A stretch of DNA of 64,000 bases from Schmidtea nova (taxonomy: Eukaryota), in the NCBI GenBank assembly GCA_044892505.1, contig CM097883.1:79174001-79238000 (forward strand), given 5' to 3'. This document shows positions 7,101 through 59,030 of this stretch, piece by piece. The notes under the pieces are model-generated. The model had not been told where the DNA came from. It worked only from the letters and a program-made list of their open reading frames with translations, and did no database searches. How positions within the stretch are numbered: position 1 is the first letter of the stretch; each line of letters opens with the position of its first letter. The translations under genes were made by a program, and so were the position numbers.

Positions 7101-7715
7101 ATACAGTAGAATTATATTCAGGACTTGCTAAGGTAGCGAGCTAAAGAGACAATAGCTTGAAGCTCAATTCAAAAAGAACGCAAAGATATAAAATTCTTTT
7201 TTATATTCTCTTAGACATGACAAGTAAATTTTTTCAGCCTTCCCCATTTATATTACTCATTGACCAAAGCAAAGATCAAAATATCAAAAAAGAAAGAAAT
7301 AATAATAATATTTTTAAAGGCAAATTAAAGATTAATATAATAAGAATATTTTCGATAAAGTGAAATTTATTCGTATTAGATTAAGTCTTTGATTTTGATT
7401 TGCGTAGTGTTGTATAATAATCATAGGGCTTTAATATCGAAGACATTGAATTACAATTTGATTTAATTGAAGATAATTTTATTGGACAATTTTCCTGGTA
7501 AGTAATATTTTTTTTAAATAGCTAATATTAATATACAAATATATATTAATAAATTTCCCTTCTTAAGAATAATGATTAAAGATAGAAACAATCTGGAACC
7601 GAATCAAAAAACAAAGGTTGGCAAGTGACTTGTCAAACCAAAAACAAAAAATGATTTATTAAAAACTTTTAAAACGAGGGCAGATAAAAAATTATCTGAT
7701 GATGCTTCACAACAT

Positions 7716-10941: not shown

Positions 10942-11289
10942 AGGAATGAATTTTTCTTAATAAAAATACATTGTTTCAATATAAAATTAACTAGTTTCAT
11001 TACAAAAAACGTAATTTTCATATATCAATCAAAATAACGGGTTTCAGTAAAAATGGTATACATTTAATGTCAGTAAATTTAGTATTAAGTAAACTGTCGC
11101 GACGACTGTGGTATTTGCGTAATTGGTGTCCTCCGTCGGTAATTGGATGACATTGGTTTTCGATACATGTAAATTCATTTGTGTGCCCGCAGTAAAAAAG
11201 CATCAAGATTTCGAATTGACGTCATAGCTTGTGGGTGAATTGCAAACAGCACCAAAGCCGTATTTTTTTTGTTAAACATAATTGTAACA

Positions 11290-11585
11290 TCTGTGTTAAC
11301 CATCACTTGGATTGGATTTTCTCGAGTCATCAAATAAATCGGTTCTAATGCATGTTTTATGATATTGTTTGCTTTGATCCTTTCCTCATTATTTCGACCG
11401 TGCATCATTAGAGAACTTGTTAATCGTCCAACAATTGGAAATTGTGCTTTTCTATATCGTTTTGTTTGATAAGGACCAGCAGACTGGGGAATTATTTTTT
11501 AATATTTTCCACTATAATTGATACAATCTGTTAATGATAGATCGATAGTGTGAACATCATCATTGCTCCATTTAATAATAAGCTT
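11290..11585 (-). pseudogene. RPS5: Processed, truncated 40S ribosomal protein S5 pseudogene
   Basis: [75 protein letters not shown]; intronless, one stop, C-terminus missing. Confidence 0.9.
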
Positions 11586-12956
11586 AAAGTCAGATATATC
11601 AATAGTTTAACTGGATTATATATAAAAAATAAATTCAACAAGAAAAGCATATTTTTTTAAACAAACGTATTTTTTATATACAGTTTTTTAAACAATTTCT
11701 TTTCTTTTTTATTTATATAATAAAATATATATTACAACCATGTATACATTTAATATATACTTAATTTATGTTGGGTTATTATTCTGTAAGATCGGTTTAC
11801 TGACCTGACTCCTCGTGCTCTTTAATTTTCGAAATCAATGAACCCAACACAGAACAATCTTTTTATTCGCGATCAACACAAATTACAATTTTAGTTACAC
11901 ACACGTTTGATTAATTTACGCTTTCTTTCGATTCGGATTTGACTCTTTAATTCACAGGATGCTTTCTTACTTTGTCTGTTTAATCGTTTCAGGATCTTTT
12001 TCTATTCGCTTTCAAAGTCTTTTTAATAATCTCTTTTTGACTGTCCACTCGTCGGCCCCGTCCTCTGTTTTGCGCTGCCTTTTATAGTTCTAGCACCTAG
12101 CAATTAGGTTTTATCGATACCTAAAAGTTAACCAATATCGGGTTTAATTGTTTGGCTAACAAATTATTTTAATTATCCTCGGATGGATTTTCCCTAATTG
12201 CCCCGACTTTGATCTCTCGGGTCTTTTGGCGCTCGGGCTTTCCTCATCGCTCGGGTTTCCCATTGCCTCGGGCTTCCCATTGTCTCGGGTTTCCCATTGA
12301 GCGATTAATTAATTTTAATTAGTTTGTTTTTATTAAATAACTTTCTCTGGGGACCCCTTATTAAATTTCTATTATTAATTTTGGGTTCGTCTTTTGATTT
12401 GGTATTCAACCATACCCATTTCCCCCAGTGAATATTAATTTTACATTTTTGATAAATTTTAATTAATTTTTGCATTTTAATTTATTTCGATATTTCTTGT
12501 TACTTTTGTGATTTTTATACTAACCCCAACATATCTCACCCCTTTATTCAAGATTCGTCCTCGAATCTATTTTTCCATTAATAATAATTTATTATAATAA
12601 TTTCATATTGATTATAATAACAATAATAATTAATTATAATAACTGTAATAATTTTACTTATAACGATAATAATAACAATTGCAATAATGATAGTAATGCT
12701 AATTATTCTAATATTAATGATATAAAAATTCTAATAATTCTAATAATAATGTTATAATAATAATGATAATAATAATAATAGTAATAATAATAATAATAAT
12801 AATAATACTTAGAATTCGAATAATAAATTGTTAACGATAAAGTAACAATAAGAATTTGACAATAATTCGTTTATTTATTTATATTTTTATTTATTTTTTT
12901 TGCAATGGTCATATAATAATAATAATAACAATAAGTTGATAATTAATAGTTAATAC

Positions 12957-13095
12957 NNNNNNNNNNNNNNNNNNNNNNNNNNNNNNNNNNNNNNNNNNNN
13001 NNNNNNNNNNNNNNNNNNNNNNNNNNNNNNNNNNNNNNNNNNNNNNNNNNNNNNNNNNNNNNNNNNNNNNNNNNNNNNNNNNNNNNNNNNNNNNN
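12957..13095. other. Assembly gap (N run)
   Basis: Run of n. Confidence 1.
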
Positions 13096-13600
13096 TAATT
13101 GTTAAATCGGCTTTGCCGATGTTTACTTTAAAATCGGCTTTGCCGATAATTATTTGTGTTACTTGTTTTAAATCGGCTTTGCCGATTATTATTTATTCCC
13201 TTTGATCGGCATAGCCGAAAATAGAGTCAATATTGGGTTGGGTGTTGACTTGATATATATATATATATTTTTTGTTTATTTATTACAAGTTTTAAAAAAT
13301 TTTTTTTGATAATATTTTTGGTAACTTTGACGAAAATGATTTTATGGCAATTCACATATTTCCGGTTGTTGTCTCTGATTTTATTCAATTATGTCGATTA
13401 ATATCGTTTTCTTTATTTATCAAATTCAATTTTCTATAGCAATTTATCTCTCCTTTTCTTTGATTCACTCCTTCACCGACCTTTAGATCACGTCGGTTAT
13501 TATCGTAACAATTTTTCACCGACCTTTCTATCACGTCGGATAATCTCGTAACAATTTTCCAATTATTCAATATTTTCACTATGCTCTCACCGACCTTCGG

Positions 13601-13618
13601 ATCACGTCGGGCTCACCA
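13601..13618 (-). promoter_or_regulatory. Primer-binding site complementary to tRNA-Trp
   Basis: Plus strand ATCACGTCGGGCTCACCA vs vertebrate tRNA-Trp 3' end ATCACGTCGGGGTCACCA (17/18, recalled); 3 nt from the LTR. Confidence 0.85.
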
Positions 13619-16600
13619 AAATGTTGGTTATTATTCTGTAAGATCGGTTTACTGACCTGACTCCTCGTGCTCTTTAATTTTCGAAATCAATGAACCCAAC
13701 ACAGAACAATCTTTTTATTCGCGATCAACACAAATTACAATTTTAGTTACACACACGTTTGATTAATTTATGCTTTCTTTCGATTCGGATTTGACTCTTT
13801 AATTCACAGGATGCTTTCTTACTTTGTCTGTTTAATCGTTTCAGGATCTTTTTCTATTCGCTTTCAAAGTCTTTTTAATAATCTCTTTTTGACTGTCCAC
13901 TCGTCGGCCCGTCCTCTGTTTTGCGCTGCCTTTTATAGTTCTAGCACCTAGCAATTAGGTTTTATCGATACCTAAAAGTTAACCAATATCGGGTTTAATT
14001 GTTTGGCTAACAAATTATTTTAATTATCCTCGGATGGATTTTCCCTAATTGCCCCGACTTTGATCTCTCGGGTCTTTTGGCGCTCGGGCTTTCCTCATCG
14101 CTCGGGTTTCCCATTGCCTCGGGCTTCCCATTGTCTCGGGTTTCCCATTGAGCGATTAATTAATTTTAATTAGTTTGTTTTTATTAAATAACTTTCTCTG
14201 GGGACCCCTTATTAAATTTCTATTATTAATTTTGGGTTCGTCTTTTGATTTGGTATTCAACCATACCCATTTCCCCCAGTGAATATTAATTTTACATTTT
14301 TGATAAATTTTAATTAATTTTTGCATTTTAATTTATTTCGATATTTCTTGTTACTTTTGTGATTTTTATACTAACCCCAACATTTATATTTAATTTATAT
14401 TTAATATAAATATTATATTTATTGTATCAGAACAACTACCAAAAAAACAATTTTAGAAGACAAACTTGTGACTCAAAAATAGTACCAAAAATTTGTGTTG
14501 AATATGAAAAAAATGAAATTGTAATTAAAATCAAAGGTGAAGAAGATTAAAGATTTTAATGATTGACTATTATGTAATTCTAAAAAATTCGTAATTTATT
14601 TATTATTAAATAATTTTATATATAATTACGTTAATTACCTTTCATTCTGTATATAAAATACAATTGCTTATTGTACTTTTGTTGGACAAGAACCCAATAA
14701 AAATTCGATTTTATTTTGTGGCTCCAAAGATTCACAAACATACACTGGGAAGAAGTTAAAATTAATATTCAAGAAAAATAAAATAATTAATCCAAAAAAT
14801 CAAACAAACCAAAATAATAGTTTTTAAAATAATTAAAACACGGCAAAAATATCATAAAAACAATTAAAAAACATAATATAAGATTTAAAACTATGAACAT
14901 CTAAGATAGTGAACGAAATTCATCACGGAGCCTAAAATAGCGAAAATAATTTAAAACAATTAATTTAAAATGGCAAAGACAAATTGAGAAATCCAATAAG
15001 AAAACAGGAAAATAAAGAAAAAAAATTTAATTAATTAAAATAAATGGAAAAAAATTCGAAGACTGATAGGCAGTATTTTTTCTAAAGCGATCCTTTCACC
15101 ATGGTCAGTCCTGGCGCGGGGCAAACACGTGCGATGCAGGTTGGCGGCCGATTTATCAAAATCTCAATTTCCAACAACAATTTAGCCTGGCTAGGAATAC
15201 TGTCTATGTATCTGTGTCCAAGGAGATTTTTAACATGATCTTCATTTAAAATAGGAGTCCAGATTTGTTATCCATGCCGAAATTCTATAGGCTGGCTTAT
15301 ATCATAGTAACTTTTTTCTATATTAAAAATATTGATTTTAGTTTCTATTTTTAGATTATTGGAATCCCATTTTAGTTGCAATTTCAATCCCATTTTTATT
15401 GTTTAGCTTTCTTCAACTTTATAGTCATACTATTCATTATTTAGAAACTCGATTTCTTTTGGGACAGAATTCGAAAAACTCAGTGAAAATCACAATCAAA
15501 TGGCAAAGTATATTATGCTGTCTTTTTTATTTTCCGATTACATTAGTCATTTTGAACGTTAGATTCTACTTGTTGGATAAATGGATAATGTATCTCAAAG
15601 TAAATTTTCCTTTTTCAACTAGATAATTAGGCCGAATAATTTATGAATCAGGATTTGTTACTTAAAAATTGGACAATACATTGCGAAAACAGATGAAATT
15701 TCTCAGGAGGATCCAATTAGCAAAATATTAGTTTATTACGAAATACTAAGTAGATTTATCAGCTTAATTTGGAATTTATGACACTGATTTAACATTTCCA
15801 GAAATGAGTATCGTTATGATAGTATTTCTTGTATTTGTAGCTTTTATGGAAATTTTTCTTTAAAGAATTTTAACTGTTTTATTTTTAATTACTGATTTTT
15901 TTATTATCGAATTTTGTTAATACATTTTTGAGTTAGTTTTTTAATTACTATAATTTCTATCATTAAAATTTTGAATATATCTTGGAGTTTGTTAGTTTTG
16001 GGTTCCCATTAGAGTAAACCCTTGTCTATTTATAAAAAAACCACTGACGCACTAATATAGAAATTTTCGATTTTCTTATAAATTAAACACTCTATCGTAT
16101 TTCGAAAATGCTATTCACTTTCTGCTATAACTCTAAAATCTCTAGACAATGGTAACATTATTATTTCACTAACTTTTTGATGTTGATAAAATACAAAATT
16201 AAAAAAGATTGACTATAAAGATTTTAAATCGCGATGTGAAGATTTCACTATGTTCATGGCTATGATAGCTATGGCTATGTTCGATGATTTTAATTTATGT
16301 TTACAATAATTGTTAAATAATATTTCGACATAGTTTAAGTGGCAGGAGATGCGTGAAAACTTTCTGTCGAATTTTTAAAAAGCACGGTTTTACGATCTAT
16401 TTTATTCGTTTCTACTCTTTGAGTTTGAATAGACATTGTCGTGGAAAACAGGCTGCAAGACGTATGTTGAAGTTCCAAATTCTCAACTTTGGTCACTAAA
16501 TTAAATAAATTAAGATAAGACTGGTAAAACGATTTTTCTTCATCCTCTTTGCTAGCTGAAATTAATATCTCGTTGGACCTGACCTACCAGGTTTATCTCA

Positions 16601-16935: not shown

Positions 16936-18796
16936 TTACATATCCCAACAATTTTATTTACGTCATTTGATTTATTTTTTCTCTTTATGCTAGCTTATTT
17001 TTAGACGTTTCTTATTTCTGGCTAGTTTTTAGATTCCCCTTATATACTAATTTTATTTTACTTTTTTTAGCGCGCTTTTAACTTCCTTGGGTTTCTTCTA
17101 TTTCTCTCGCAACCAAAAATATATAACACGATCGCGTTAGTCCATCAATGCACGGTATGGTGATCAGTCATACCACAAAGACTTTCTAACATTTGCGATG
17201 GGCCCATCCTATTGGTGGTTTGTTGACCGTCAACATGACCTTGACGTTGTTGTGGCTCACATCAACAACTAAACATACAAAACATTAGCTTAACCATCTT
17301 GTTGCCCGTCACAATGTAACGTTGGTAATGCAACAAATGAGTGGGTATTCGCAATCAGTGAGCGTCGAAAGTTCGAAACTATGATTGACCGAATATCTCC
17401 TGGGTCCAAGGGCTACCGATAGAAGGTTTAATACCAATTTTGTCCCTTCAACAATCTATCTATAAACATTCAATAATATTTTAAATCAGAAAATTTCAAA
17501 ATAACTAATCCACATCAATATAAGTTTATTTTTGCATCAAAAGGAATCATTCCGAGCATCAAAACACCAACAAAACATTAAATTTTGCTTAAATTCATGA
17601 TAATTAGTAGATAAAATATTTTTCAAAAAAACAAAAAACTTAATCTGCGTTTAAAATAAAAAAAACTTTAATTTTTATTTGATAAATAGTAACTCTATTA
17701 TTAAAATAGTGAACCCATTGATTAAAAACAGAATATAATTCAAATAACAATTCAAGGTAAGCTATTTTTATCTAATTAGTTTATCGATTTATTTATTTCA
17801 TTTTCAGAATAGGAACTTCCCAACAAAAATCAATCTTCCTCTAACAAGTGTGAAAAATTGGAAAGAATATAGATATATTTTTCTATCCAGGTTCATAACT
17901 GGTATTTTATTTTTTTAGTAACAAGGTGCATCAGCAGCATCGTTCAACACCCGGTTTCGTCATTTCTCCAAAAACTCTTAAGTTGCTCCGCTAAATACAT
18001 TCCCAATATGTTTTAAAAAATTTAGAGTTTCAAATCAAATACTGCCCTCCTTGTCTCGAACTTTGCCCAAATCTCAAATGGAACTTCATCTCATCTCCAA
18101 CAATTCTCACCTCTGTCAATTTTGTATGTCTATAATAAATTATATACTGGATTTTATATCAAAATTGATTTTCTCTTCTCTATAATTCTACATAATTATG
18201 TATGAATGTTTTCTCTTTTTAACTCGAAATCTGACAAAGTAAATTTATTGGTTTTTTATTGTTAACTGTATTTGTGATGGTAATGAATTATAAGCTTAAC
18301 CCTTTGAACCCTTGCCTCCCTGGCCTAATTTCTCCCATTTCCTGAGCTCCCAGACCCAAAGCAATTGTCACTTATCTGCTTCTAACTATGCCTATAACCT
18401 TTGAACTGCTTGAGATAATCAAGCCAAATTTTGTATCTAGGCTCAGTCTCAAACAACAATTCAGCCAGATTATGAAAATTTTTGTTTTTTTACAATGTAT
18501 GAACATAACAATAAATAACGAACACCTATAATTATTGTTTTGATAGGCCATAGAAGAAATAAATTTACATTTAGTAATTGTTTTTTATTATTGATACCTG
18601 GTCATATTTGTTCATTGCCAGAAGTCCACTTTTGTGTGATAACTTTCAAAACAATTATTGTTGCCGGACCCGATGCAAAGAAAAACTTCGCATGTTTTGC
18701 ACCAGTAAAGTTTTTTTTCGCTTCGGAAATTCTTGGTCCTTGGTCTTGGGATTTGCTCTTTTTTCTCGCTTGTAGATTTATTATTATAATCGAATA

Positions 18797-21330
18797 TAGG
18801 GTTTCCATACTCGGTTATCGAGTACTCGGTTACTCGGTTATTTCTCTGTTTTATAAGTTACTCGGAAACTCGGTTTTTACCATTAATACTCGGTTATTAT
18901 TAGCAATTGCAAGATATTTGGTTAAAATTATTTGCTTAAAATTAATTTACCCTTATGATAAATTTAAATAAAATAGTAAGCTTTGCAAATAAAATAGTTC
19001 TTTTTCATATTTAATTTTGTAAACAATTGCAAGAGCTAAATAAATGAATTGTATATCGAAAATATTTGTTTAAAATTAATTTACACTTATGATAAATTTA
19101 AATAAAATAGTATTGGTTTTTCTTTTTCATATTTAATTTTGAAGATATAGGTTTATTCGACAAATTGATGGTAAGTATTTTGTGAGGTTACTTATAGTGT
19201 AGTTACAATTTAATTTTCTAAAATAGCTATGTCAACCAAGAACTCAAATAAAAAGTCTAAAGTCTGGAATTTTTTTAGTAAAAATAAAAATAATGAAGAC
19301 GCAAAATGATTGAAGTGTGGGAATGTTATCTTCTGTAAAGGGTCATCCACAACCGCATTGATCAACCACTTAAAAAGACATGATATATTTATTAATAAAA
19401 AGCGAAATGGTTCAGAAGAACTTCCGATGATATCCACTGGTTCCGTGTGCGCCAAAAGAACTAAAACTGAACAAGGTAATTTATGGAATTACGTGAATTG
19501 AGACTCGTTGGGGGAAATTTTAGCAAAATGTGCTGCTGTGGATGGATTTTCTATACATGCTATTAAAAATTCTTCAGCTCTTAAGGGATTTGTTCAATAT
19601 CGTGGTTATGAAATGCCAAAAAGTGATACATCCATCATGAATCACATTAAAGATTTTGCTGTACAGAAAAGAACAGAATTGGCCAAATACTTATCGACCT
19701 CGAATTCAAAAAATAATAGACAAAAATTTAGTATTACTGTAGGCGAATGGACAGGCAGAAATGTTAAACGATATTTGAACGTAACCTTACACAGTAAAAA
19801 TAAAGCGCATGTATTAGGTTTGATACCAATTGATGGTTCGTACAATGCAGTTAACTTGAAAAATTTGGTTGATGAAAAATTGCTTTGCTTTGGTCTGAAA
19901 TTTGCGGAAGACATTATCGCTTCCACAAACGATGGAGCTGAAGTCATGCAAAAATATGGAAGGTTAATAGAAGCTATATGCCAACTTTGTTTCAATCATT
20001 CTATTTACCTAGTAGTGATTGATGTTTTTTATAAAAGAAATTGTAAACGAAAACATAATTTTAAGTAAATGTGATGATAATTATGACAGTGATGAAAGCA
20101 GTGTAGAAAATTCCAGTAATTCGGATACAAATGCAAACTTAAATTTTGATGATGTTGAAGAAATAATTACAACTTTTAGACCAGATATTGGTAAAACATT
20201 AGCAGAAACCAGAACCGTTATTAAAAAATTTAAAAATTCACCAGTAAGGAACTCAATTTTGCAAAATTATGTCACAGACCATTAAGGCAAAAATTTGAGT
20301 TTGATGTTGGATTGTAAAACCCGCTGGAATTCTCTGATCCCAATGATTGAATGTTTCTTAAAATTGAAAGAATGTATCAAGAAAGCACTGAATGATATTG
20401 GTTGTTTCGATATTTATAAAGAAGAAAATGAGGTAGTTTTGGAAGAAATTTTAAAAATTATGAAACCAACTGAATTCGCTGTTAAGGAATTAAATAAAGA
20501 AAGTGCTACGTTGTTAACTTCTGAAGGTGTTTTTAAATTTTTGTTTGAAAAGCTTCACGAAATTAATACTAGTTTAAGCAAAGAATTATTAACTGCATTA
20601 AAAACTCGAATGTATTACAGACGAAATGAAACAGTAATAACGTTGTTACTATATCTCCAGTGTGGAAAAATGCCTCGAGCCAATGGTGATTTTACATATT
20701 CGTCAAAAATTGCAGTTTGTGAATTTGCAAATGTTCTTTTAAATAAAATATATCCGGTTTCTGCTATTTCTGAATAAGCTGGCAGTGACAGCGTGTCAAC
20801 AGACGATTGTTTTGAAATAGAAGAAACGGATACAAATGAGCTTAATCAAGAACTGCACAGGGCAATTTCATCCGTTTTGGACATTAATAATAGTTCTAAT
20901 ACTGGAAAAAATATAAGAGACTTGAAATCAGATTTTAAAATATTAGATGGAACCAAAAAGCGTACTGAGAATCTTGAACGATTATACGAGGCCTTATTAA
21001 CTATAAAACCAACATCTACCGCTACAGAAAGGGTTTTCTCAACAGCAGGAAATTTCTTGACCAAAATAAGAAGCCGCTTAAACTTTAAATCATTAGATGC
21101 ACTAATTTTCTTAAAGTATTATTTTTTAAATAAATCTAAATAATTCTAAATTCTACTCATCAATTATATACTCTTTTTTATACTCTATAGTCTATAATAT
21201 ATAATGAATAAATGAATTAAAAATATTTGAATTACAAAAATGTTTTTTTCGGTTGAAATACTCGGTTAATTTTCCTTACAGATACTCGTAAACTCGGTTA
21301 GTTAATTTTGCCGAGTAATTAGAAACCCTA
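18797..21330 (+). mobile_element. hAT DNA transposon nested in giant LTR copy 1
   Basis: TIR TAGGGTTTC, perfect 8-bp TSD ATCGAATA, subterminal ACTCGGTTA repeats. Confidence 0.95.
19229..21143 (+). pseudogene. hAT transposase with BED finger and C-terminal dimerisation motif, several stops/frameshifts
   Basis: KSKVWNFF..KCG..STTALINHLKRH; ASTNDGAEVM; CKTRWNSL; PTSTATERVFS. Confidence 0.9.
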
Positions 21331-23453
21331 ATCGAATAATAATATAAATAAAAATTTGTTGGATTGTGGATGTAGATGTAGATTGTTGGTTACAATGATC
21401 AGGTGGGATTTGTGAATAGGCATGCAGTATTTTATAATGAAATTTTTACATGAGATGTTGTGCTTGTTGTGGTTTGGTGAGGTGAGATGTAGTGATTTCA
21501 AATGTGTGTATATACTATTATAGATTTGTTATGGATTTTCTATTGTGTGATTGTATGTTGGATAAAATGAACAATTCAATGATAAATGAGATTGGGTGAA
21601 TGCCTATGGGAATTTTCTGAATACCATATTGAATTTTAAAAAAACGTAATAGGATTCTGGACGTTAATTATTTTGAACAGACCTTGCGCTTGGCCAATCC
21701 ACTACTCCTCATATAGCCAGGTATGAGATGAAGCGTTTTTGGATGTTTGCGTTCATATCGATGAAAATATGGATCAGAACACTGAAAGGACTCCAGCAAA
21801 CTGATGATTCAACAAAGTGACTAATGACGGTACAACGACTAGGTGACCATCATCAGACATATGGAAATGGTTTTAATTAGAAGAAATATAAATATGTATG
21901 TAAATAAATAAATGAATATCAATATAAGGATGTTAGATTGTGAGAAAATATGATCAAAGTAAAAATAAAACTTGAATAGAAAAAATTATAATAATCATTA
22001 CATATTTTACCATAAGATAACACATTATCAAACTTGAATAAAAATGAAAATCGAATCAGAATACCTACGGCAGGGTAACAAGGCATGATTGCTAGCCCGC
22101 ATAACATAAAATTCATGATCCTTACATAATTGAATAGCTTCCCCGCTTGGTTCGGACGCGATTTCTAGAAATCTTTTGAGGGATTAACCTGAGAATTCTC
22201 TCAAACGATTTTAAGCAAAGTTCTCTTTGCTAAAAAACGTTTCACAATTTTTAGCAACAAAATTCCGGAAATTCTGCAAAATTTTGGCAAATTCTCGAAA
22301 GTTCTTGACAAACTCTGATGAAATCCATTTTGATGGCGGTATATATAGTTGGTCAAATTGTTATTTTCGTTGATGCATTAGAACAAATTGTTCTAGAAGG
22401 AATTTTTCGATTCTTGAAAATTAATTTCAATAATTTTACGCAAAATTGAATTATTATTTTTGTATTAAATTTTAAATAAACTCTTAATAATTTATTTTGG
22501 ATCCAAAATTTCATTTTTAAATCAAAGTTTTTCCTAATTTAATTAGTTTATCATAATTTCTAACTAAAACGATTTTCTTTCGTATTTTTTGAATTTTTAC
22601 ACTAAAATTCGAAAATTTCCTTCCGAAAAGATGTTAATATTTCCTATTGTGTTATTCTATTACACAATTGATGTTCTCACATTGTACATGTATTTTTACG
22701 TGTACACTCAAGGCGCTTTTGTTCGTTTCAAATTTTAAACGTGTTTTAATCAATTATTTCATGTGTTCTGCTGTTACTGGGTTGTACTTGGTGTTTTGGC
22801 ACACAGAATTTTAAATCTACTTGTTGCGCGCTCTCTACATGTTATATTACTGCGACATTTAAACAAAACTCAGTTTTTGCCCAACACTATATTTCCCTGG
22901 TCGGTTTAATCGTCGGTTTTCCCACGTTATTCCTAACTTAATACTCGAAGGTAGCTTAAAAGTAATTTAACATACTACTCACGCGTAGCTCAAAAAGTTA
23001 TATTACGCAAAATGAATAATCCTTTCACATTTATGACTTTCATTACTCGCATATACTCGTTTTCATTCATGATCTTTATCTCAGCAGTGGTACAGATTTC
23101 CAACTTTCAACGTCAGTGGTCAGCTCCCTATTCTTACGTATTTTCGTTTGTTACTTTATTTTATTATTTCCCTTTATTTGGTCATTTCCCCCGTCTCTCA
23201 AATTCGCTCTTATTTGTCTATTATCCAGTTCTAACCCTCTTAATTTATTTACAAGGTGATTTGATTTTTTCGCCACGCTTCCAACTACAAGATATGTACA
23301 TAAATAGTTTGTTGTCAGTCAGTGATAGACAGATCGATCGTCTCGACCGACACTTTACGGAGCTGCCCTAGAAGTCGAGCTTCCTAACGTCACTTTCGAC
23401 GGGCACGAACTCCTTTGCTGGGTCGCCATTTCTTTGGCCGATCGACGGATGGT

Positions 23454-23745
23454 TTAGTGACTAGCCTTTGCGTCGGTGCCACTTCTCCAGTCCTTACTGG
23501 AAACAACTTCAAAGCGGGAAACTCCATCTTGGATTCTGACGTCGATTTTCAATTGGGCAATCTCCGCGTCCCGTTGTTTCACGGTCATTTTTACCGCGCG
23601 CAGTTGGAACGCGTCTTCTGCGGCCTGCTCCTGTAATATTCTATTTTGCTTTCGCATCTTCTCGGTGCCCTCCACATTCGTCCAAGTGGATTCCACTTTC
23701 CGGCACTGAGAGAGAAAGCTTTGGAGCGGATTGAGAGAAGCTTTG
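23454..23745 (-). other. GC-rich coiled-coil-like ORF fragment, right of which lies the L EVE
   Basis: KMRKQNRILQEQAAEDAFQLRAVKMTVKQRDAEIAQLKIDVRIQ; no family recognised. Confidence 0.4.
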
Positions 23746-24805
23746 TCCAGGAACACAAGAACAACCTTTTTAGCTCAAGGAGACAACCAGGGGATTATCA
23801 TCCAATATAAAATGAGTTGGCTGGATCAGGATGAAGATACTTTGAAGGATCGCATGATGGAAATATGGAATAGCAATTCTTTTATTATGAGGGAAATCGA
23901 AGAAGAATCTAGAAAGCTCAATTAACTCTTCAATCACGATGAGGTAGCAACTTCAGCTGATTTCCTCATGTTTTTTTTCTTTTTTTTCCTCTCTTTAGAG
24001 GAATTTATGTCACTGTAGATAACAAGAGGTGGTCTCGAATGTCCGCCGTGACCAACGATCAGATCCCAAGTCTTGCCAACTCAATATCTGCCATGTCGAC
24101 CTCAGTATTAACTGTTAGTCAACATTCGGAAAATCACATTAAGTCTGTAATAAAATATACCATCTGAATCATTCATATTATCGACTATTTTTTATAATAT
24201 TATTCTAGGGAAAAATCCGTTCTCAAAATTCATCAACAAAACAAGCGACAGAACAAGCGACAGAACCCGCCAGAAGAAATTGGCAATCAAGGCTTTGTTC
24301 AAGGATCCTAGTGTAGGAGGAATATGTGGGACTTCTCTGAACAGATTTCTTATTAGAGGATTCCCAGATCCGGTGTCGGAATCATTATCTTGGTGGAAAT
24401 GGATGTATCATAACTCCGACGATAAAGAAGTGAGGGAAATCGCCGTAGGGTGTGAAAAACCTAAATATGGGGAAATCAGTTTGGTTTCATTTTCCAAGTT
24501 ATTGGAAAAACCGACTTTTCTGAACATTCCCAGTTCCATATGTACAGATACCCTGATAAAAGAAGAAATAAAATCAGAGCTGTTCAAAAACAGACGACAT
24601 CAAAAGCACCAGCGTGAGATTCGCCATTCCGCAATCAAGGGACACTACTCCATTGCTTATCAATGCACTGATGAGAATAAAACCTATTTTCCCAAGATTT
24701 TGAGTGTATTTTATGCCAGTTCGTTCATGAAGATTTCAGATGAGATCGTAGGGCTATTCCATAACTCCAAAACCATTAAAAGGGTCTTTTCAAAACACAT
24801 GTCTC
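23731..24805 (+). other. L: Endogenous viral element: rhabdovirus L polymerase RdRp core fragment (stops and frameshifts)
   Basis: FLAQGDNQ (motif C), KLN*LFNHDEVATSADFLMF, PLFRG..KRWSRMSAVTNDQIP, DPSVGGICGTSLNRFLIRGFPDPVSESL, LFHNSKTIKRVF; collinear with VSV L as recalled. Confidence 0.93.
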
Positions 24806-24956
24806 TCAAATTTCTCCATCCGCTTCGTCATCACTCGGAGCTCTACATAGAGGAGCTTCTTTTCCTCTTCCATCTCTGCTACGCGGGCTGTCAGATGCCG
24901 CATGCTCCTGTTCAATCCAGTCAACTGAAGCATCATTTGATCTATCTTGGATTCCA
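24790..24956 (-). other. Coiled-coil-like ORF fragment preceded by a splice acceptor, abutting the right end of the L EVE
   Basis: tgtgttattcag|aaATG then MESKIDQMMLQLTGLNRSMRHLTARVAEMEEEKKLLYVELRVMTKRMEKFE. Confidence 0.4.
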
Positions 24957-26802
24957 TTTCTGAATAACACATACAAATAAATAATAATTTCAGGTCACCT
25001 ACTATCCTCATGCAATTATATTTATCAAGCTTCAACTATTTAATTGGCATCACTACTCAATTCAGGGATCAAGCATTCCTTTAAAAACATATATATTAGG
25101 GGCATTTAATCGCTATTATTTTATCCTATCTAACTATTATTTCCATGATTTTTAATTTCTGGATTTTTATGTTAAAAATTTAATTAAAACTCTATTTATG
25201 TACTAATCTTAATGTCTGTCTTGTATTCTAAATTATTTTTAAAAAATTTGTTAAAATTTTAGCATTTAAATCTTAAATCTTTCGCCGAGGCCTTGACAGC
25301 GGCAACGAGCACTTTTCCCAGAAATTTCGTTGATTTATCCTATATTAAGATTTTAACGGTCGCTATTTTAGTTTTTAAATTTTTTGATATATTTTAAATT
25401 AAGAAATCAAAATTCCGATCGCTTCCCCGTCAAATTTACTCGAGATATTCCGTCAAAAAGGTAAAGCTATATAAATGCAAATGCAAACATCATTAATTTT
25501 GATTAGTGGATTTACAGTATGGAAATTCAATTTCTATATTATAAATATCGATTTGTTTATTTTTAGATTTCAACTGAAATTCCTCAGTACTTCAACAGTT
25601 CGATTAATTTCCAAGAATTTGCCGTAATTTGCTTTATTTTTGTATTTTTGGTAATTTTCATTTGGTTATTTTAGACAACTGAACAGCGTTTTTGGCACCG
25701 AAATAATGAAATTTATTGCGTTTTATGCTCACAATTCTCACTTCAAAACCTTTCGCAAATATTCTGTCTCTCATCAAATCAGTCTCGAGACTCACTGGGA
25801 TCTTTCCATGACTTCTTCCCTAAAATGAAGTGAAATTATTACGGTGATCTTTATGGCCGGTTATCGGTGAAGTACGTGCCAAGGAAATCTCAAATTCAAA
25901 ATATTGCATTGGAAGTTTCACAGCTGTTTCAATCAATTTCATCAGTGCATTTACGTTATTTTTCCCATTCATTTACGGATCTCTGAACAAATATGTTGAT
26001 GGTTTTTCTGTCGAACAATTGTTATGACAAGTTAGCGGTTACATTTTGATAACGCATTTTTGTTTTTGAGTAATTTTATTTTAATACATTTTGATTGTTA
26101 CGACTTTTTGATTTTCGATTAAATCATAATAGGTTAACCCATTGACACACGAAGCCGACGAATCGCCGGTCAACTATATTATGGTATTAAAGCACTAAAC
26201 GCCTGTCTGTCTTTGCATAATCATTTTATGCAATAAAGATCATTGACCACAATTTAATGCAGTAGTAACAGTTCGTTGCATGAGGAAAAATATGCCACCA
26301 ACGTACAGAATAAACGCAAAAAAACCAAAGATTAAAAAAATAGTGGTGGAATGGGTGGAATGGTGGAACCATTGATAATTAGCAAGGTTATTATGAGGAA
26401 AATGCTGTAAATTGGCATTATCTAAAATCTGTGATTGAGATATTAATAGAGTTTATTGTTGGTTTTACTTGTAAATTTTGTAAATGGATTTTATCGATCG
26501 GAATTTAAATAAAATATATTCTATAATTAATATAATTTTATAATGAGACGAATTTTAATTAATACCAATTTTGTACTTTATGCTTGATGAACCAATTTTA
26601 TAGATTGCGAACATAGATGGATAGCTTTTTATGTGGTTACTGTAATCACTATGCGTCTGAGACGAGTGATTAGTTTGCTGGGATCTTAATGAGTGACAGG
26701 TTGAATCCTGTAGGTGATAAAAGTAATCCATATATTATTTTTTATAGTAAATTCATATTAAATTCATAATAAAATTTTTAATTTATAATTTTTCTATACA
26801 TT

Positions 26803-28203
26803 TGCTGGGTTAATGGAGGGGTTAGATCAAAAATGTCTAATAGTGACTAGGGATACCCCGTCCATGATCATGCATAAATATTTTCTATTTCACTCGAGCG
26901 CCCTTGACTATCTCCCTATATAGCCAAGTTGGTGATGCGCAAGGTGATTGAACAATGATGGGCAGGTGAGCTCTATTGCTAGAACTACTCCCCATTTATG
27001 TTCACGGGTTCATGCTGCCGTAGAATGACTTACGCTATTTTATTCATTACAAAAAAACTGAGTGTTCGATTTGTGATCGATTTTGTAGTAAATCTGTTGA
27101 TTAGTAACTAAATCGTTGTATTATGAATACCTAATTCATTTGTCTACCCTGCATTGATGACTGAGCTATTTTCCGATAATTTTTATTTTCGTTCTACTGG
27201 CCAAAAACTTGTTGTGCCCCCTAATAACTATCTTGTGTCGAAAAAATCAACTTGCTCCTCATTAAATGTATCGTGTTAAAATATGAACAGGCCCCCTGAT
27301 AAGTACATGATAAGCCAACTAAAATTTCGGGGTGCCACTTAAGGCTGAGTTATTCTTTCCCTTACGAAGATGTCTTTCGTCTCTAGGTGTTCTGACCCAT
27401 CCTACGTGCAACCGTTTAAAAAATTTCATCAATATTAAATAAATTGTTTTTTAAGATTATCGAAAAATTTATAACTTCATAAATAAAAAGGTCTAACCGC
27501 CGTGTGAAGCCACGACAGCGACTAACTCCCTTGCCGCGTTAGAAGTCGAGGATGCATATCTATAATTATGCATTAAATGAATAAATGGATAACTAAATGA
27601 ACCAATTCGATAAAAAACATGTATTAATTAAAATAATAAAATCATGGGACACATCATACATAAGAATACAAATGAAAAAATTACTGCTGATTTCGAATCA
27701 ATCGATATTGTCGAAAATATGGATCTACAAATTTTAACTTTAGCTCAACTGTTAAATCGTTCAGAGACTAAAAATTCAAAGTAAAATTATTCTTCTAAAT
27801 TTGTGATTTTCAGATCGGTATTTATACTGATCCTGCCGGTTGGATTGACCAATCAGGATCAGGCCGTCCATCAAAGTATGTCGATCATTTTGCTTTATTT
27901 TAAATAATCTTTTGTTTCCGTTTCAGATTTCTCATTGGGTGGTCCTGGTTTTCCGAGTAATTATTTAATAATTTGGACTTTTTTTTATTAATTTATAATT
28001 TTCTGTTTTCAGGCCCCCTCCTGTCGTTCTGTTGTGAAATGCTGATTATTTTCTACTGGTAATTTATCTATTGCCAATTAATTATTTATTTTTTAATCTT
28101 TTTCCGTTATATTTCTTGGTTTTAAGTTATCTATTTAAGTTATTATTTTGTTTTAATTGTTATATTATTTTTTACATTTTAAGGCCATTTGGTGTGTCCA
28201 ACA
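26803..28203 (-). mobile_element. Solo LTR, 1401 bp
   Basis: TGCTGGG..GTCCAACA, 4-bp TSD CATT; homologous to 35008-36477; minus TATAAA at ~27825 beside a CCAAT motif. Confidence 0.85.
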
Positions 28204-28752
28204 CATTTAAATTTAAAAATTTGATAAGATTTATAAAATAATAGAATTATTGATTAGAAAGTTTTCTTTTTTCTATAATATAATTCAATTCTAAAACTTT
28301 TCACATCGTATTATTTTCAATAATAGGTTTTTTAGAAAAATTATATTCCATTCGTATGTGTATTCTCCAAGAGAAGTTCACGAATTTTTCGCGACACTTC
28401 ACTTGAAGGCTTCAAATACCCAAAATTAGGTTTGAATGAAACAATTTTCATGAATAATTTTAGACCAAAATGAGGTTCAATTAGACAAAATCAATTAGCA
28501 TTTATATAATCTAATATGATCTGTACATAACCTGGTTTGGTCATTCTTTAGGGTTGATAAAAGGGTTATTAAGTTGTCGGTCTGGGTTCTCACCATTCCT
28601 ATTAACATCTATCTTTAATTATTGAATCAAAAATTGAGTTAGACATTTTTCATTATTTAGATCCCACAATTAGTTCATTGTCACAGAAGAAATTTACTTG
28701 TGAATTAGCGGTTGTTTTTTTATAGCGCAGATGTAACTTTCGGTGATATTAT

Positions 28753-29926
28753 TGTTGGGAATTTAAAATTAAATTTTTTTCGGAATTTAAGCAGTTAACT
28801 GGGTTTTCCACATCATCATTATCTCCTACTCTACGAAGTCGGCTTAATGGGACTATCACTTTACCATTAAGAAATCAATTAGACAAATCGAATTTACAAC
28901 CTTCTACTTTCGTAATGCATTAATTATTCACTCACTCGCCTCGTCGGGTAATCACACTCGCAAATGAGAGAAACCCATTGGCGTCATTCTTACTCTTTAT
29001 CGTAATTAAATGGGTCTACTAATTGATTTCATTGTGATGAAAAACGCTGGGGAGGTAAATTTACTTGCTTTAGTTCAATGATATTTTCCAATTAGATTTT
29101 TCCTTGAAAATGATTTTTAATGAATGTCATATTTGATAGACGTTCAAATCATCATCTCTACTACTCATGGATTCGTTAGTCTCTAGTGGACGTTGATTGA
29201 AGTTTTACGAGTGAAATAAAGATTGATCCTCAGCGCGCAAAGTTTCTCGGTTTATCTCTGACTAAAGATAACGTGAAAAATTTGATTTCATTAGTGTTAA
29301 TTCTCATAAACCATAAAAAACTCTTTTAAACTGCATGATACTCGACATTCCTCGCTACTGCCACTGCTTTCTATCTCGCCGTACGATAGTCCATCCATCC
29401 ATCCCGCACACGAACTGCGGAATGGAGGGCGAAACTACAGGAGAGTTAGCTTAGGATAGTTACCAAAAATGCTACTAAGTTAGTAAAAAAATATGCTGTG
29501 ACTGTAAAATAATGCTTTAAATGATGATCCTGCTACTGACTTGAGCGCCCCTTATATACAAATTTCGGCGCTTCAGCAGCCAATCAGAATTGATCTAGCC
29601 TTTTTATTGGCTAAATAATTCGATTATCGATATTTTTCTTAGTTTCTTGTTTGCCATTAATTATTTCATTTCTTTTGCTATTGTTGTTTATTTAATTTTA
29701 TTTATTTATTTAATTTCTTATTTTTATTCTTTTTATCTTGCTTCGTAATTTATTTCAGGCTTTCTTGTTTTTATATTTTTTGTTTTAATCTTTTTATTTT
29801 TGTTGTTATTATTCTCTTATATCCTTTGATATTTTGTTTTTATTGTTTCCTTTCTAATTAATTATTTTATTGTTCCTAATTATTATGCTATTTTGTGACT
29901 ATTTCAGTGTTTGTGCTAACCCAACA
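28753..29926 (-). mobile_element. Probable solo LTR, ~1.17 kb
   Basis: TGTTGGGA..CTAACCCAACA, minus TATA-like element at ~29555; flanks (TTAT/ATTT) do not form a TSD. Confidence 0.6.
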
Positions 29927-30649
29927 ATTTTAAGCAAAATTGAATAATTATTTTTGCATAAAATTTTAATAAAACTTTAAATAATTTATTTAAATCTATA
30001 ATTTTACTTTTGAATTAAAGTTTTTCCTAATTTAGTTTAATTAACTAAATTTTTAACTAACAATTTCCTTTCATATTTTTTGAATTTTTAAGATAAAAAT
30101 CGAAATGTTCCTTCTAAAAATATGTGAATTTTTCCTAGTTTGTTATTTTATTACATAATTGATGTTTTTATGTTATGTGTGTTTTTCACGTGTATATTTT
30201 TTGTTCATTTTAATTTTTAAACCTGTTTTAATTAATTATGTGTTTTGTTGTTACTTTGTTTTACTCGGTGATTTAGCTCAGAATTTTAAATATACTTCTT
30301 GCGCGCTCTCTACATGTTGTATTACCGCGTTATTTAAACAAAATTCAGTTTTTGCCCAGCACCCGTAAATACCATTTTGTACTTACGTTAGTACTGCATA
30401 CTTCAGACGAATGCGAATCGGCAGGTGAGCGTCTGCGTTAACGCTACTCCAGATTCAATCATTCTCACGGGTTCCTTAATGGCCGATAGGTCTTCACAAT
30501 TTCCCAACCTAACCCTTTTGCAGGTCACTCTTTCAGGGTACATTTGTCTTACAAGTCAGTCTAAAACTTATCTCAGAGTTGTCGTAATTTTCCTTAGTTA
30601 CTTTTATGAGTGTTAATTTATCGTGGTTTTGGAATAAAACACTAAAACA

Positions 30650-32335
30650 CGACATAATACATATAATTAAACAATATCGAGGTTTGCCATCCTTCACTTT
30701 CAGATTCGTTTGATTTTGTTATTGTTATTTATTATTTTTTTCGTTTCCTTTTTTATTTTACATTTTATTTATATTCCTAATTATTCTATTATTATTTAAT
30801 TATCTGCGTTTTAATACTTATTTTTATAGATTGTGCTAACCCAAAATAAGTAACCTTTATACCACAAGATCGTTAACACGAAATGTTAAAAGTTATTTCT
30901 TCCGTCGACGATTTCTTGATTTTCCCTAGAACTCGGGCCTCATGCCGCCTTCTCCGGAGAGCTTGGACTTCTTTTTCTGGGTTTGAACCGCTTGAGCTTG
31001 GGCAGTACCGCAGTCAGAGAAGATTTTTCTTCCCTCTGTACTGGGAATAGTTCCAGTGAGGAATTGTTCATTTCGGGAGTACGACCGTTATTTATCGGGT
31101 TTCTACCCAAATTCGTATCAGTTCGACATCTCTCTCTTTGATGGCTTATATTATTATTTTGTTTAATTGGTGTTTCTCATGATAGATTTTAAATTCACTT
31201 CTTGCGTGTTCTTTACATGCTATGTTACCGCTTCAACAAAATAAACTCCAGTTTTTGCCCAACAGTATATGTTTATTAGCTATAAGTTTTGATGTCTCAG
31301 CTTTAAGTCGACTTTGATTGCAGTTCATCAGTACTTCGTTCCATAAATGTTGTCTTAGGTGTAAGAATATATGTTCCTGATATTTACTAGAAAAAATAGT
31401 TAGAAAAAATATAAATTTTAAGGAGAAAATAATTAATATAAAATTCCTGCGGATGATTCTCCGGCCATTCTCTCACATCTGCGTAAGTATGAGGCTAGGT
31501 TTGGATGTCACGTCGACAGCATGGAGTTAACCAGTTTGGGAGATTCCACTCTAAACTCATGAACACACTCTGGCGTACCTGCATCGCAACAAGAAGGACA
31601 CTACAGCGAGTTTGCGACTCGGAAGGTCAGGAATAGTAAAAATATTTATGCTATTAATATATGCAATGATTTTGTTCTTAGATCGAGAATGTATTGGATC
31701 TATATTTTCACAATGAATTAGCAGATAATAGGTAACTGGAGCATGTACCGGTACCGAAATAAAATAATCAGGACGAGCAAATCATCAAACTGGCATACCT
31801 TGCATGCACAGAATGATGCCATCTCTNNNNNNNNNNNNNNNNNNNNNNNNNNNNNNNNNNNNNNNNNNNNNNNNNNNNNNNNNNNNNNNNNNNNNNNNNN
31901 NNNNNNNNNNNNNNNNNNNNNNNNNNNNNNNNNNNNNNNNNNNNNNNNNNNNNNNNNNNNNNNNNNNNNNNNNNNNNNNNTTTTATTTTTTACATAAATT
32001 TTAACTACTTTAATTTTAATTTTTGCAATTTACTTTTACATTTTTCACATACTGTCAAGATTAAGATAAATATTTATAACATTTTTTTGAAATTTTATAT
32101 TTACCTAATTTTCAATGAATTTTTGTTAATTTGCTTTGTTTGTGTTTTTTCATGGTTACTTTTTGCAATTGTTTAATTTAAATTTTACAATTGTTTTCAT
32201 TAATTATTCCTGTGTTTTTAATAATTTTTGTTTATTTGGTGTTTGCTCAGATATTTAAGGATACTTCTTGTGCGGTCTCTATATGCTATGTTCGCACTCG
32301 CTTCCAAATTACTTGAATTTAGTTTTCGCCCAACA
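30650..32335 (-). mobile_element. Cluster of truncated LTR ends (terminating ~30846, 31264, 32335)
   Basis: Terminal motif cttcttgcg(c/t)g..ctacatg..gtttt(t/c)gcccaaca at 31264 and 32335 shared with 22886, 30361, 46611; gtgctaacccaaaa at 30846 resembles the 29926 end. Confidence 0.65.
31827..31980. other. Assembly gap (N run)
   Basis: Run of n. Confidence 1.
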
Positions 32336-34620: not shown

Positions 34621-35007
34621 TAAAAATATTTTGTTTTTAAGCCATTCTTGTGATTTACTCCTGCTGGTGCTATTTTTGTAGTAAGTTATATATTTTTAAA
34701 ATTTTATTTTTCAAGAATCGTTTTTTGCATCGGTACGTGGAGTATCCGCTGTTTTTACACACACGATGTTGTGTGCGAAGTTGCAGATATAGCGATACCT
34801 ATTCTTCTCATTCCCCAATGCAAGGTTATTTTATTATTATTATTAATTCAAACATTTTTTTTATTTAAGGAATTTAAAATATTTTAAGAATTTTTGATAT
34901 TCAATGTATTAAGAGTTTAAATGTGAGTTTAAAATTTTTTATATTTTTAAAATTTACCTATAAGTTCTTTTTTGTTTTTTAAAATAATAAAATGTTTGGT
35001 TTTATTT

Positions 35008-36477
35008 TGATGGGACTGTGGATGGGTTAAAAAATATATGTATGTAAATTGGTGTTTTCAAGGGATTACCCGCCCACAATCCTGCATAACTTGTAATCGA
35101 CACGCGTATGCCCTTGACTATTTCCTACTAGCCAAGTTGGTACTGCATACGGTGGTGGAAAATGATGGGCAGGTGAGCTCTGTCGTCGGACATTTTTCCC
35201 CGATAGGAAAAAATCGTCCGGATTTGTAGATTGACATTGATTTCGGTTGGGGAAGATGTAGTTTTCTGTAAGCATTCTTTCTCGGCTTCCCGGAGTGGTC
35301 GGATTGCGATATTGAAAACGATTCCAAGTTCCCTGAACGTCGAGGCCGGAATATAACCCCAGTAGATGACAAAAGTCGGAAATCCACGTTCGTCCAACAT
35401 TAGGACAAACCATTCTGCGTGCCATTTCTCAAATTCTTCTCCCGGAATTATGGGCCAGTTGGCACATCCTCGGTACTGTAACTACTCTTTGGTGATGTAT
35501 GACAACAAAAAATGTTTCCTCAAAAACTCCTTCTCATGGCGCATCTCCTGGTTATATCGGTTTCTACTCTTTCAAAAATCAGTGCCCTTTCACACTCAAC
35601 ACTACTCTTAGTAGAAATAATCACCCTGGTTCTTTGTGTCCCATGTGCAACCCTGTAAAATTAATTTCATTTTATCGCTTTCTCTACCGTGTGTGGAGCC
35701 TTTAAGCACCACGACGCGGACTGACACCCTGGGAACCTGTAGCTCCCAGTCGGCGCCCTAAATATCTATAATTTAATTATTCAATATCAACAAGATTCAA
35801 TATTAACAAATCATATAATTAATATGACAAATTCTATAATATCACTACTTTAATATAAACATGGATGACCAAATCATGAGAAAAATATATATAAATAAAA
35901 CCAAAAATACCTAATTCGTCTGGATTTAATTCAGTCGGTTAATTGATCGGCTAGTAGTCAAAGTTCAGGATCGCTAAATTGGTTAAATCGCTTCGGTCAA
36001 TGTTGACAATTTATGCTCAAAAACAATGCTCAAAAAATGCTGATTTGATTTAAAGTCTGATCAGTATTTATACTGATTTGTCGGGTCTAGACTGACCAAT
36101 CAGGTTTGGTTGCTTCCATGGTAGGTCTAATTATTATTTTGTTTATCTAATTAATTTTTATTTTTTAGATTCGATTCTTTCTAGGTGGTCCAGCTTTTCA
36201 AAACAATTATTTAGTAAAAGGTACTTTTATTTTGTTTTAATTATTAATACTTACATTTTATTTGTTTTTTTCTAGGTGCCTCTTATGCCGGTTAATTTTG
36301 AAAATCTCCTCAATTTATCTATTTTTATTTATAATTTACTAGTAATTCATCTATATTTTATTTATATTACCCTTTTCTTTTTAAATTTAATATTCCCCTT
36401 TCTTATCTTACATTTTTCTTTTTGTTTTAATTATTATAGATTTATTTTCCTCTTTTCTCTGTTTAGCTGGCCCAACA
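35008..36477 (-). mobile_element. Solo LTR, 1470 bp
   Basis: TGATGGG..GGCCCAACA, 4-bp TSD ATTT; collinear with 26803-28203. Confidence 0.85.
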
Positions 36478-37139
36478 ATTTTAAACGATTCTTTTAATAC
36501 AAGCAACAATTAATCGCACATATAAACTCAAATAAAATTAATAACAATCACCATATAAGTCATTGTTTGATCTCTTGTGTTCGTATTTATCCTATTTTTA
36601 TTTTCTGCAATATTTTCTGTAATATTTGTTGACTTCAGACATTTCAATCTTTTTATTATCTAACACGTATATCGTCTAACCAATGAGAAAGAGATGATGA
36701 TGGCGCGGTTTGATAGTATAAGTAGTCAATGTCGCTTACTGGAGGTAATTTGGTTTAATGCCAAAAAAATGCACAAGATCCAAAAGTAGGTGCAACTACT
36801 CAAGGAACAAATGGATAAAGATGTAGCTGAGATTCTAGCTCTGTAAATGATCCTCAAAGATCAAGACAAGAAATGAAATATAATCCTGATAGATTTTGGT
36901 ATAGCCAAGTCCATAATTTCATCGACCCCTTATCAACAAAAATAACTATGTCCACCTTGCACAGAACCATCATAAAAAATCGAGAAAAAGTTGATCTCGC
37001 GCGAATGAGGCGACGAAAAGAAGCTTAGATTTTTGATTAATAATATCGAAATACCAAAAACTTTTCACTTCCATCGTAACTTTAAATATTGAACCATTGT
37101 TTCGACCGATGTATGCGCAATTTAGATTTATGTACCTTC

Positions 37140-58900: not shown

Positions 58901-59030
58901 ACCCATTTGTTGCATTACCAACGTTAAATTATGACGGACAACAAGATGGTTAAGCTAATGTTTTGTATGTTGAGTTGTTGATGTGAGCCATAGTAACGCC
59001 AAGGTCATATTGACGGTCAACAACCCACCA
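55990..59030 (+). mobile_element. Giant-LTR-family copy 3, opposite orientation, U3 end not found
   Basis: 58793-59030 is the reverse complement of the 17213/42498 block; 56640-56760 matches reverse complement of 21360-21500; plus-strand TATATAAA at ~56094. Confidence 0.65.
56374..56470. repeat. 34-bp tandem repeat x3
   Basis: gaaatcc(a/c)aaa..caagaaatttataatagattt units. Confidence 0.9.

Follow-up and report, generated by a model that had tools for sequence, protein, structure and literature searches.

Multi-kilobase LTR-like units, one of them a solo insertion, and a candidate antisense spliced unit within Schmidtea nova DNA

Two long TG..CA units and their limits

We analysed a window of 64,000 nucleotides of Schmidtea nova DNA (GenBank assembly GCA_044892505.1, contig CM097883.1, forward-strand positions 79,174,001 to 79,238,000; coordinates below count from its first base), within which two units of 3.1 and 4.1 kb, here copies A and B, begin with TG, end with CA, and have the appearance of long terminal repeats (LTRs). 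The window is AT-rich and dense in mobile elements, with hAT and mariner elements, a piggyBac-like DDE fragment, a DNA polymerase B fragment, and rhabdovirus N and L fragments. The units, and a neighbouring element used as a reference, are:

17213..22886, minus strand: copy A, an LTR-like unit of 3.1 kb (5.7 kb with a nested hAT), probably a 3' LTR, possibly a solo LTR.
18797..21330, plus strand: the hAT nested in copy A, with an 8-bp duplication and a broken transposase.
42498..46611, minus strand: copy B, a solo unit of 4.1 kb with a TTAT duplication, in register in a 142-bp tandem array.
55990..59030, plus strand: copy C, a partial mosaic with an end block as in A, an inner block as in D and a TG block as in A.
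25045..30361, minus strand: copy D, a composite; right-end block 29922-30361 79% identical to A, 25050-25308 common to C, 26769-28169 common to 34987-36443, TATA modules at 27826 and 29558.
11769..14382, minus strand: the reference, a 2.6-kb non-autonomous element with paired 0.76-kb LTRs and a TTTA duplication, its minus orientation fixed by a primer site and a purine tract.

An earlier note on this DNA had described A and B as collinear TG..CA units flanked by CTAT and TTAT, and the ends, the repeats and the collinearity, which extends over three blocks, were confirmed: A is flanked on both sides by CTAT and B by TTAT. Without the hAT, A measures 3,132 bp, B measures 4,114 bp, and both are, as had been stated, several times longer than the LTRs of the reference element (763 and 761 bp). 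Three A-B blocks were found with nhmmer (17213-17922 with 42498-43237, 21667-21857 with 44889-45068, and 22250-22884 with 45887-46609), together covering 1,536 of the 3,132 bp of copy A (49%); the middle one scored 104.5 against 48±9 in 100 shuffles. About 200 bases were excluded from the comparisons of blocks, interiors, flanks, open reading frame (ORF) copies, the diverged end block G described below, TG windows and the intron pattern. The remainder of A gave no convincing alignment to B, as 7, 38 and 130 of 300 shuffles scored as high in the respective comparisons. Homology begins and ends at identical TG and CA in copies A, B and C, and identity climbs toward the left end, reaching 83-91% over the last 200 alignment columns (8 flanking bases included). 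A 12-base palindrome (17197-17208) adjoins the left flanking repeat of A.

The insertion of copy B cuts a 142-bp tandem unit, and the earlier observation that it does so in register was borne out: in an alignment with an intact unit, the left flank runs as far as 42069, and the right flank, taken from 46613 on, resumes at 42067, with four bases duplicated. Because these separately aligned flanks overlap by exactly the four duplicated bases, copy B is a genuine integrase-type insertion. CTAT makes up 0.40% and TTAT 1.35% of the 4-mers of the window, for a joint frequency of 5e-5, and the duplication of B has the same length as the TTTA of the neighbouring paired-LTR element. The view of the units as unrelated repeats, or as local duplications that have decayed, their 4-bp matches being fortuitous, draws on the half of A that does not align to B and on inner comparisons that were not significant (38, 130 and 56 of 300 shuffles as high); set against this, the limits of homology coincide with TG and CA in A, B and C, the block order is kept, and the empty site of B is in register, so that this alternative is largely refuted and we regard it as scarcely tenable. 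The 3-4 kb units are a real family with one clean solo copy, one probable 3' LTR and several fragments. Their identity as LTRs is inferred, and the sequence features that bear upon it are described next.

Orientation, probable LTR layout and the DNA beside copy A

17213..17574, minus strand: conserved terminal (U5-like) block of A, ending ...AACCACCA; its AATAAA at 17530 is conserved in A, B and C.
22250..22886, minus strand: U3-like block of A, starting TGTTGGGC; TATA at 22347 in a context common to B.
45412..45893, no strand assigned: a 46-bp tandem array of 10.5 copies, just downstream of the predicted start site of B (TATA 46002).

The sense strand of the family is most likely the minus strand. 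Read on that strand, A starts with TGTTGGG and B with TGTTAGG, both end in CCACCA, and the termini are inverted at 5 of 6 bases without a longer inverted repeat. The two starts fit the TGTTRNR of animal Metaviridae LTRs, for which an excerpt of PMC3601003 gives a consensus of TGTTRNR at the start and YNYAACA at the end; membership of the family in Ty3/gypsy seems likely. A TATA box lies 539 bp (A) and 609 bp (B) into the unit, with a downstream context common to both, and an AATAAA occupies matching alignment columns in A, B and C, some 320 bp short of the CCACCA end. Because the positions of TATA and AATAAA are conserved, most of the LTR length would fall in R, for which about 2.3 kb (A) and 3.2 kb (B) would be left between a predicted U3 of about 570-640 bp and a U5 of about 290 bp. 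AATAAA occurs often here, with 9 sense copies in A and as many in B, so that one earlier than the conserved site could be used.

The reference element, with LTRs identical at 760 of 763 positions, is young, and its TGG primer site and its purine tract both read on the minus strand. The primer site presumably fits tRNA-Trp; there were no transfer RNA genes in the 64-kb window against which it could be compared. Within the element, part of the primer-site sequence recurs in 43-bp repeats at 13472-13558, and the interior is a TAA-rich tract with an assembly gap.

The terminal features also bear upon a reading in which the units are non-autonomous elements moved whole by an integrase-like (Ginger-like) transposase, and carrying small intron-containing genes. 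Ginger1 and Ginger2 share TG..CA ends, a 4-bp duplication, the 3-4 kb size and introns with these units, and differ by inverted repeats of 40-270 bp and 50-180 bp respectively (PMC2836005, in excerpt); in A and B, which have neither such 40-270-bp repeats nor a transposase, the inverted termini agree at just 5 of the outermost 10 bases and at 19 of the outermost 60. GingerRoot has inverted repeats of 100-150 bp and a 6-bp duplication (PMC6839031, in excerpt), and Ginger1 targets CCGG or CCGT. Neither a primer site nor a paired repeat was found for the long units, in keeping with whole-unit transposition. No transposase was found in A, B, C or D other than that of the nested hAT; non-autonomous copies would lack one. 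The asymmetric layout of promoter and poly(A) signals and the linked upstream ORF fit an LTR better, and we consider Ginger-like transposition quite improbable.

The DNA to the right of copy A, which would lie upstream of it on the minus strand, contains these features, to which those beside D and the end block G are added:

22887..22898, minus strand: a purine tract, like a polypurine tract, directly 5' of the start of A; its last four bases are the right-hand CTAT.
23317..23774, minus strand: a broken ORF3-like ORF without a known family; it ends 431 bp upstream of A.
30879..31150, minus strand: a second ORF3-like copy, ending 515 bp upstream of the start of D.
36724..36903, plus strand: a third, diverged ORF3-like copy (tblastn E 4.5e-6, 33% over 60 amino acids).
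37792..38152, plus strand: G, a diverged terminal block ending AAACCAGCA, 1.1 kb past the third ORF copy and 56% identical to A.
24223..24852, plus strand: a rhabdovirus-like (Mononegavirales) polymerase fragment (PF00946, E 1.8e-27), antisense to the ORF3-like region and between two coiled-coil coding pieces.
24790..24960, minus strand: a coiled-coil exon behind a splice-acceptor-like signal, which may start the ORF3-like gene.

The right flank of copy A does not consist of unrelated host DNA; coding homology to the DNA right of D was found there. The right flanks of A and D (700 bp) were 54% identical over 698 columns, with a score of 178 compared to 107±13 in 100 local shuffles and to a best of 116 among 288 other stretches of the window. 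Translated in the minus frame they scored 71, which none of 200 shuffles reached (mean 31), and in the plus frame 48, which 1 of 200 reached; over 34 codons the mismatches at positions 1, 2 and 3 numbered 14, 12 and 23. The purine tract has 12 purines in 16 bases, 5 of them G, a pattern met by 2.1% of minus-strand 16-mers. The third ORF3-like copy precedes G in the same orientation, and G itself exceeded all 300 shuffles when compared to A (nhmmer E 4e-4). No continuation of the ORF3-like sequence was detected right of 31264 or 32335, nor on the minus strand at 36477. The ORF3-like protein has no Pfam family, and searches returned 0 of 201 candidates, no match among 1.84 billion representatives and none in viral contigs; Atlas matches to it at 0.91-0.93 were not accepted, with just 103-114 shared features and low recognition. 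A further endogenous viral fragment, from a rhabdovirus nucleocapsid gene (7629-8270, plus strand, PF00945, E 1.7e-15), lies 16 kb away from that of the polymerase.

The ORF3-like region is linked to LTR ends, and the part beside A looks like a 3' internal region with an ORF3-type gene. Since the right flank consists of a purine tract and a coding region that also occurs beside D and, more weakly, beside G, copy A is probably a 3' LTR, with a solo LTR the less likely choice; the right-hand CTAT would then be the end of the purine tract and its match to the left-hand CTAT would be chance. The order of ORF then LTR, found three times in one orientation, is what 3' LTRs still attached to an internal region would give. 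Thus, of the earlier description of a family of giant solo LTRs, the multi-kb family and the solo copy B stand, and solo status has become doubtful for A by reason of its purine tract and of the coding flank homologous to that of D. A 5' partner of A is missing from the 64-kb window; D, which is 79% identical to A in a single block, does not form a pair with it.

The absence of that partner is also what would be expected if A and B were both solo LTRs, and if the coding DNA beside A, D and G belonged to a different element which had been hit repeatedly near its purine tract in the same orientation. The exact CTAT repeat lies at ends of A that were set independently by homology; when A is deleted in thought, the purine tract is followed by TG two bases on and TATA 166 bp on; and the end of D is about 100 bp off the equivalent point. 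To account for the coding DNA beside A, D and G alike, strong, oriented targeting would be required. Moreover, if A had landed within such an element, the 113 bp left of A should match the first 109 bp right of D, and this comparison failed with a score of 10, reached by 972 of 1,140 controls and 283 of 300 shuffles, and the left flank of A was rejected as the continuation of the element right of D; the wider left flank of A compared to the interior of D was not significant (29 of 300). We regard this alternative as rather unlikely, and continue with A as a probable 3' LTR.

Fragmentary copies and a predicted antisense intron-containing unit

31151..31264, minus strand: E1, a short U3-like end fragment.
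31988..32335, minus strand: E2, a U3-like end beside an assembly gap.
34987..36443, minus strand: F, a sister sequence; it is collinear to the interior of D, and its intron-like segments lie at corresponding positions.
43085..43414, plus strand: antisense gene model in B, with intron 43085-43133, ATG exon 43151-43261, intron 43262-43310, exon 43311-43406 with stop, and AATAAA at 43409; 68 codons.
17757..17807, plus strand: an intron-like segment of A on the antisense strand, within an aligned block and roughly where B has its first one.
21369..21501, plus strand: TG-rich block in A following an antisense AATAAA (21347), 81% identical to C 56730-56598.

The two further copies that had been proposed as partial were each upheld in part. 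C, at its 59030 end, matches A in the end block of 360 bp (79-83%) and further in an inner block of 134 bp (81%), but the left limit at 55990 was without sequence support and no TGTTGGGC-type end was found there; the right side of C abuts a mariner, and a Tc1-like element lies to its left. For D, the right-end block was confirmed, but there is no left-end block and 1.4 kb matches 34987-36443 instead, so that D is not one simple copy. Ends beyond those first listed were right-type at 31264 and 32335 and a diverged left-type at 38152. The block common to C and D stops at CCA in both (58369 and 25045), like a second type of LTR end, with no matching duplication or primer site found at these positions. 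CCCAACA at 29926, 28203 and 36477 was tried as separate LTR ends and rejected, as none had a matching duplication and the A homology runs through 29926. A purine run followed by TG near 37612, about 540 bp from the end of G, might make G a short-LTR relative, and if this speculation were correct, the long LTR form would have arisen by gain in R.

On the plus strand of B, which is antisense to the LTR, a 37-codon ATG exon is followed by a 49-base GT-AG intron, a 31-codon exon, a stop, an AATAAA three bases on and then a TG-rich stretch. The TG-rich windows of C, B and A ranked 1, 3 and 5 among 1,250. Using a strict intron pattern, acceptors in the 17,281 bp of units were counted as 10 antisense and 1 sense, compared to 2.8±1.7 in shuffles (0 of 200 as high), with 9 acceptors on both strands in the other 46,077 bp. 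The order of features common to the interiors was end block, intron-like signals, TG-rich block, TATA and end block. The idea that ends are conserved while interiors carry different content applies insofar as ends are kept and half of the interior is unaligned; the interiors are not simply different cargo, as they keep one feature order. D and F each carry a minus-strand CCAAT/TATA module (27826 and 36072), with plus-strand intron-like segments just upstream in matching places (27957-28126 and 36121-36275, about 61-70% identity), and these pairs are possibly parts of a divergent spliced transcript.

On balance we think it probable that the units are minus-strand LTRs of a Ty3/gypsy-type lineage, that B is a solo LTR and A, D and G are more likely 3' LTRs, and that the length lies mostly in R together with an antisense spliced unit. 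Under such a mechanism, integrase would cut the TG..CA ends and leave a 4-bp duplication, as observed for B, and recombination between the two LTRs of one element would have left B as a solo LTR. A, D and G would be 3' LTRs still joined to the internal end, which would consist of an accessory ORF3-type gene followed by an untranslated stretch of 430-515 bp and, in the case of A, by a polypurine tract. The transcript would begin about 570-640 bp in from the U3 end and finish at the AATAAA that lies about 320 bp short of the opposite end; R would carry a convergent unit, spliced and furnished with an AATAAA and a TG-rich tail of its own. The introns of this unit would survive the RNA stage because the unit is antisense to the packaged RNA, which would be of the opposite strand, and template switching in a long R between sister subfamilies may have given mosaics such as C.

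A number of results weigh against this account. Near-identical paired long LTRs were lacking within the 64-kb window, as was any gag or pol linked to the family, and no TGG-type primer site was seen beside the ends of A, B, C and D, where none would be expected if these are solo or 3' LTRs. The CCACCA end departs from YNYAACA, being one base off AACA (PMC3601003, in excerpt). If A is a 3' LTR, a chance CTAT match is needed (0.4% by window frequency); it would be likelier than this if the integrase prefers NTAT, at which the outer flanks CTAT, TTAT and GTAT hint. The purine tract at the end of D is a poor one, with 10 purines in 16 bases, and some 100 additional bases lie there; the third ORF3-like copy was not significant as DNA (15 of 300 shuffles), and G scored 95 in fixed windows, below three unrelated windows. 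The intron pattern was written after examples had been seen, and 8 of the 10 antisense acceptors fall in D and F, with 1 in A, 1 in B and 0 in C. The 68-codon ORF is open in B only and gave no protein match to the other copies at tblastn E 0.05, and its first exon was without relatives in protein databases (0 of 2 candidates). The antisense unit may be non-coding or untranscribed.

An RNA fold was also looked for in the end block. There was no Rfam match, and with z of -0.6 (sense) and -1.9 (antisense) a ribozyme or conserved fold was unsupported; in a covariation comparison of 3 sequences, two-sided change was seen in 3 of 70 pairs, with no favourable covariation term. Retrozymes are non-autonomous LTR elements with a hammerhead ribozyme in the LTR, and no hammerhead was found in the window (Rfam to E 1; a single unrelated low-complexity match). 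Motif matches outside the window (12 metagenome loci and 1 viral locus) were attributed to chance because all 13 share just the 18-20-base motif. Sequencing-run matches to B (4 rows from one study, 0.33-0.44 of words) were not counted as evidence.

Known LTR systems and neighbouring loci

Multi-kb LTRs are a speciality of planarians and plants, and animal LTRs are usually short; another animal lineage with 3-4 kb LTRs is therefore a modest addition. Ogre/Tat elements of plants, which resemble the present family in long LTRs and extra ORFs and differ in lineage, have 5-bp duplications compared to 4 bp here. As had been noted for plant Ogre and the giant planarian elements, multi-kb LTRs are known: Ogre LTRs measure 1.9-6.5 kb, with extra ORFs of unassigned function, and Burro exceeds 30 kb in total, with an internal region of up to 25 kb (PMC6431247, in excerpt); an excerpt of PMC11410931 adds a bare mention to this comparison. 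Burro/GYPSM1 is an animal gypsy-like element, likewise with multi-kb LTRs and accessory ORFs (PMC6431247, in excerpt), and is described by a polyprotein of about 5,000 amino acids with MATH, BIR, BCL2 and env-like domains, none of which was seen in the window. LTRs of 182 elements from one annelid species span 103-1,468 bp (PMC8220671, in excerpt).

Two other systems invite comparison. Excerpts of PMC7264820 describe antisense additional ORFs in Grande, RIRE2 and Retand, mostly between pol and the 3' LTR, and antisense LTR promoters in HTLV, micropia and IAP; these also are antisense units of LTR retroelements, whereas here the predicted spliced unit sits inside the LTR itself. LTR elements of bdelloid rotifers have family-specific ORF3 genes (some of coiled-coil or transmembrane type) between pol and the 3' LTR, spliced messages and many solo LTRs (PMC5408684, in excerpt). 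The coiled-coil exon, acceptor-like signal and ORF before a 3' LTR are like these by analogy only; no sequence similarity was found for the ORF here, and there is no pol to place it against.

The paper listings searched, which take in no repeat libraries, contained no description of this LTR family, nor of a spliced antisense gene inside an invertebrate LTR, and nothing was retrieved on antisense capture of rhabdovirus sequence by an LTR element. The LTR family is apparently undescribed; LTRs of this size are already known, and interest attaches rather to the predicted long R and its antisense spliced unit. If R is indeed long and holds such a gene, this would explain both the lengthening of the LTR and the turnover of interiors with kept ends, and would turn every solo LTR into a mobile gene cassette. 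The antisense rhabdovirus fragment beside the purine tract suggests a possible route of RNA-virus sequence into an antisense small-RNA source. A bolder extension, which we hold to be unlikely, is that the LTRs, once of about 0.5 kb, reached 3-4 kb through the uptake into R of an entire spliced antisense gene, that each solo LTR would be a self-contained two-way transcription unit dispersing a gene for a small protein or an antisense RNA, and that the spliced ORF3 of the lineage captured antisense rhabdovirus sequence.

Other loci in the window were as follows. An open 744-amino-acid frame at 13-2247 (plus strand, 45% GC, no Pfam match) is transposase-like by impression. At 3597-4144 (minus strand), the end of an ORF with a GPF-like motif (by eye a gypsy integrase C-terminus; no Pfam match) is followed by a purine tract and a TGTTA start, and by eye this is a separate ordinary gypsy 3' end. 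A decayed ribosomal protein S7/S5e copy at 11175-11498 (minus strand, PF00177) is probably a processed pseudogene. A broken non-LTR retrotransposon end lies left of F at 32930-34600 (minus strand), with zinc-finger and restriction-like endonuclease motifs seen by eye and no Pfam match. Remnants of a gene for a protein-primed DNA polymerase B, together with an endonuclease VII-like stretch, occupy 47793-49956 (plus strand) and are Polinton- or virus-like. The sole host-like gene, at 50408-53356 (plus strand), encodes an intronless GH38 alpha-mannosidase of 982 amino acids, intact amid repeats, with 29-30% identity to named relatives and 84% to one metagenomic relative.

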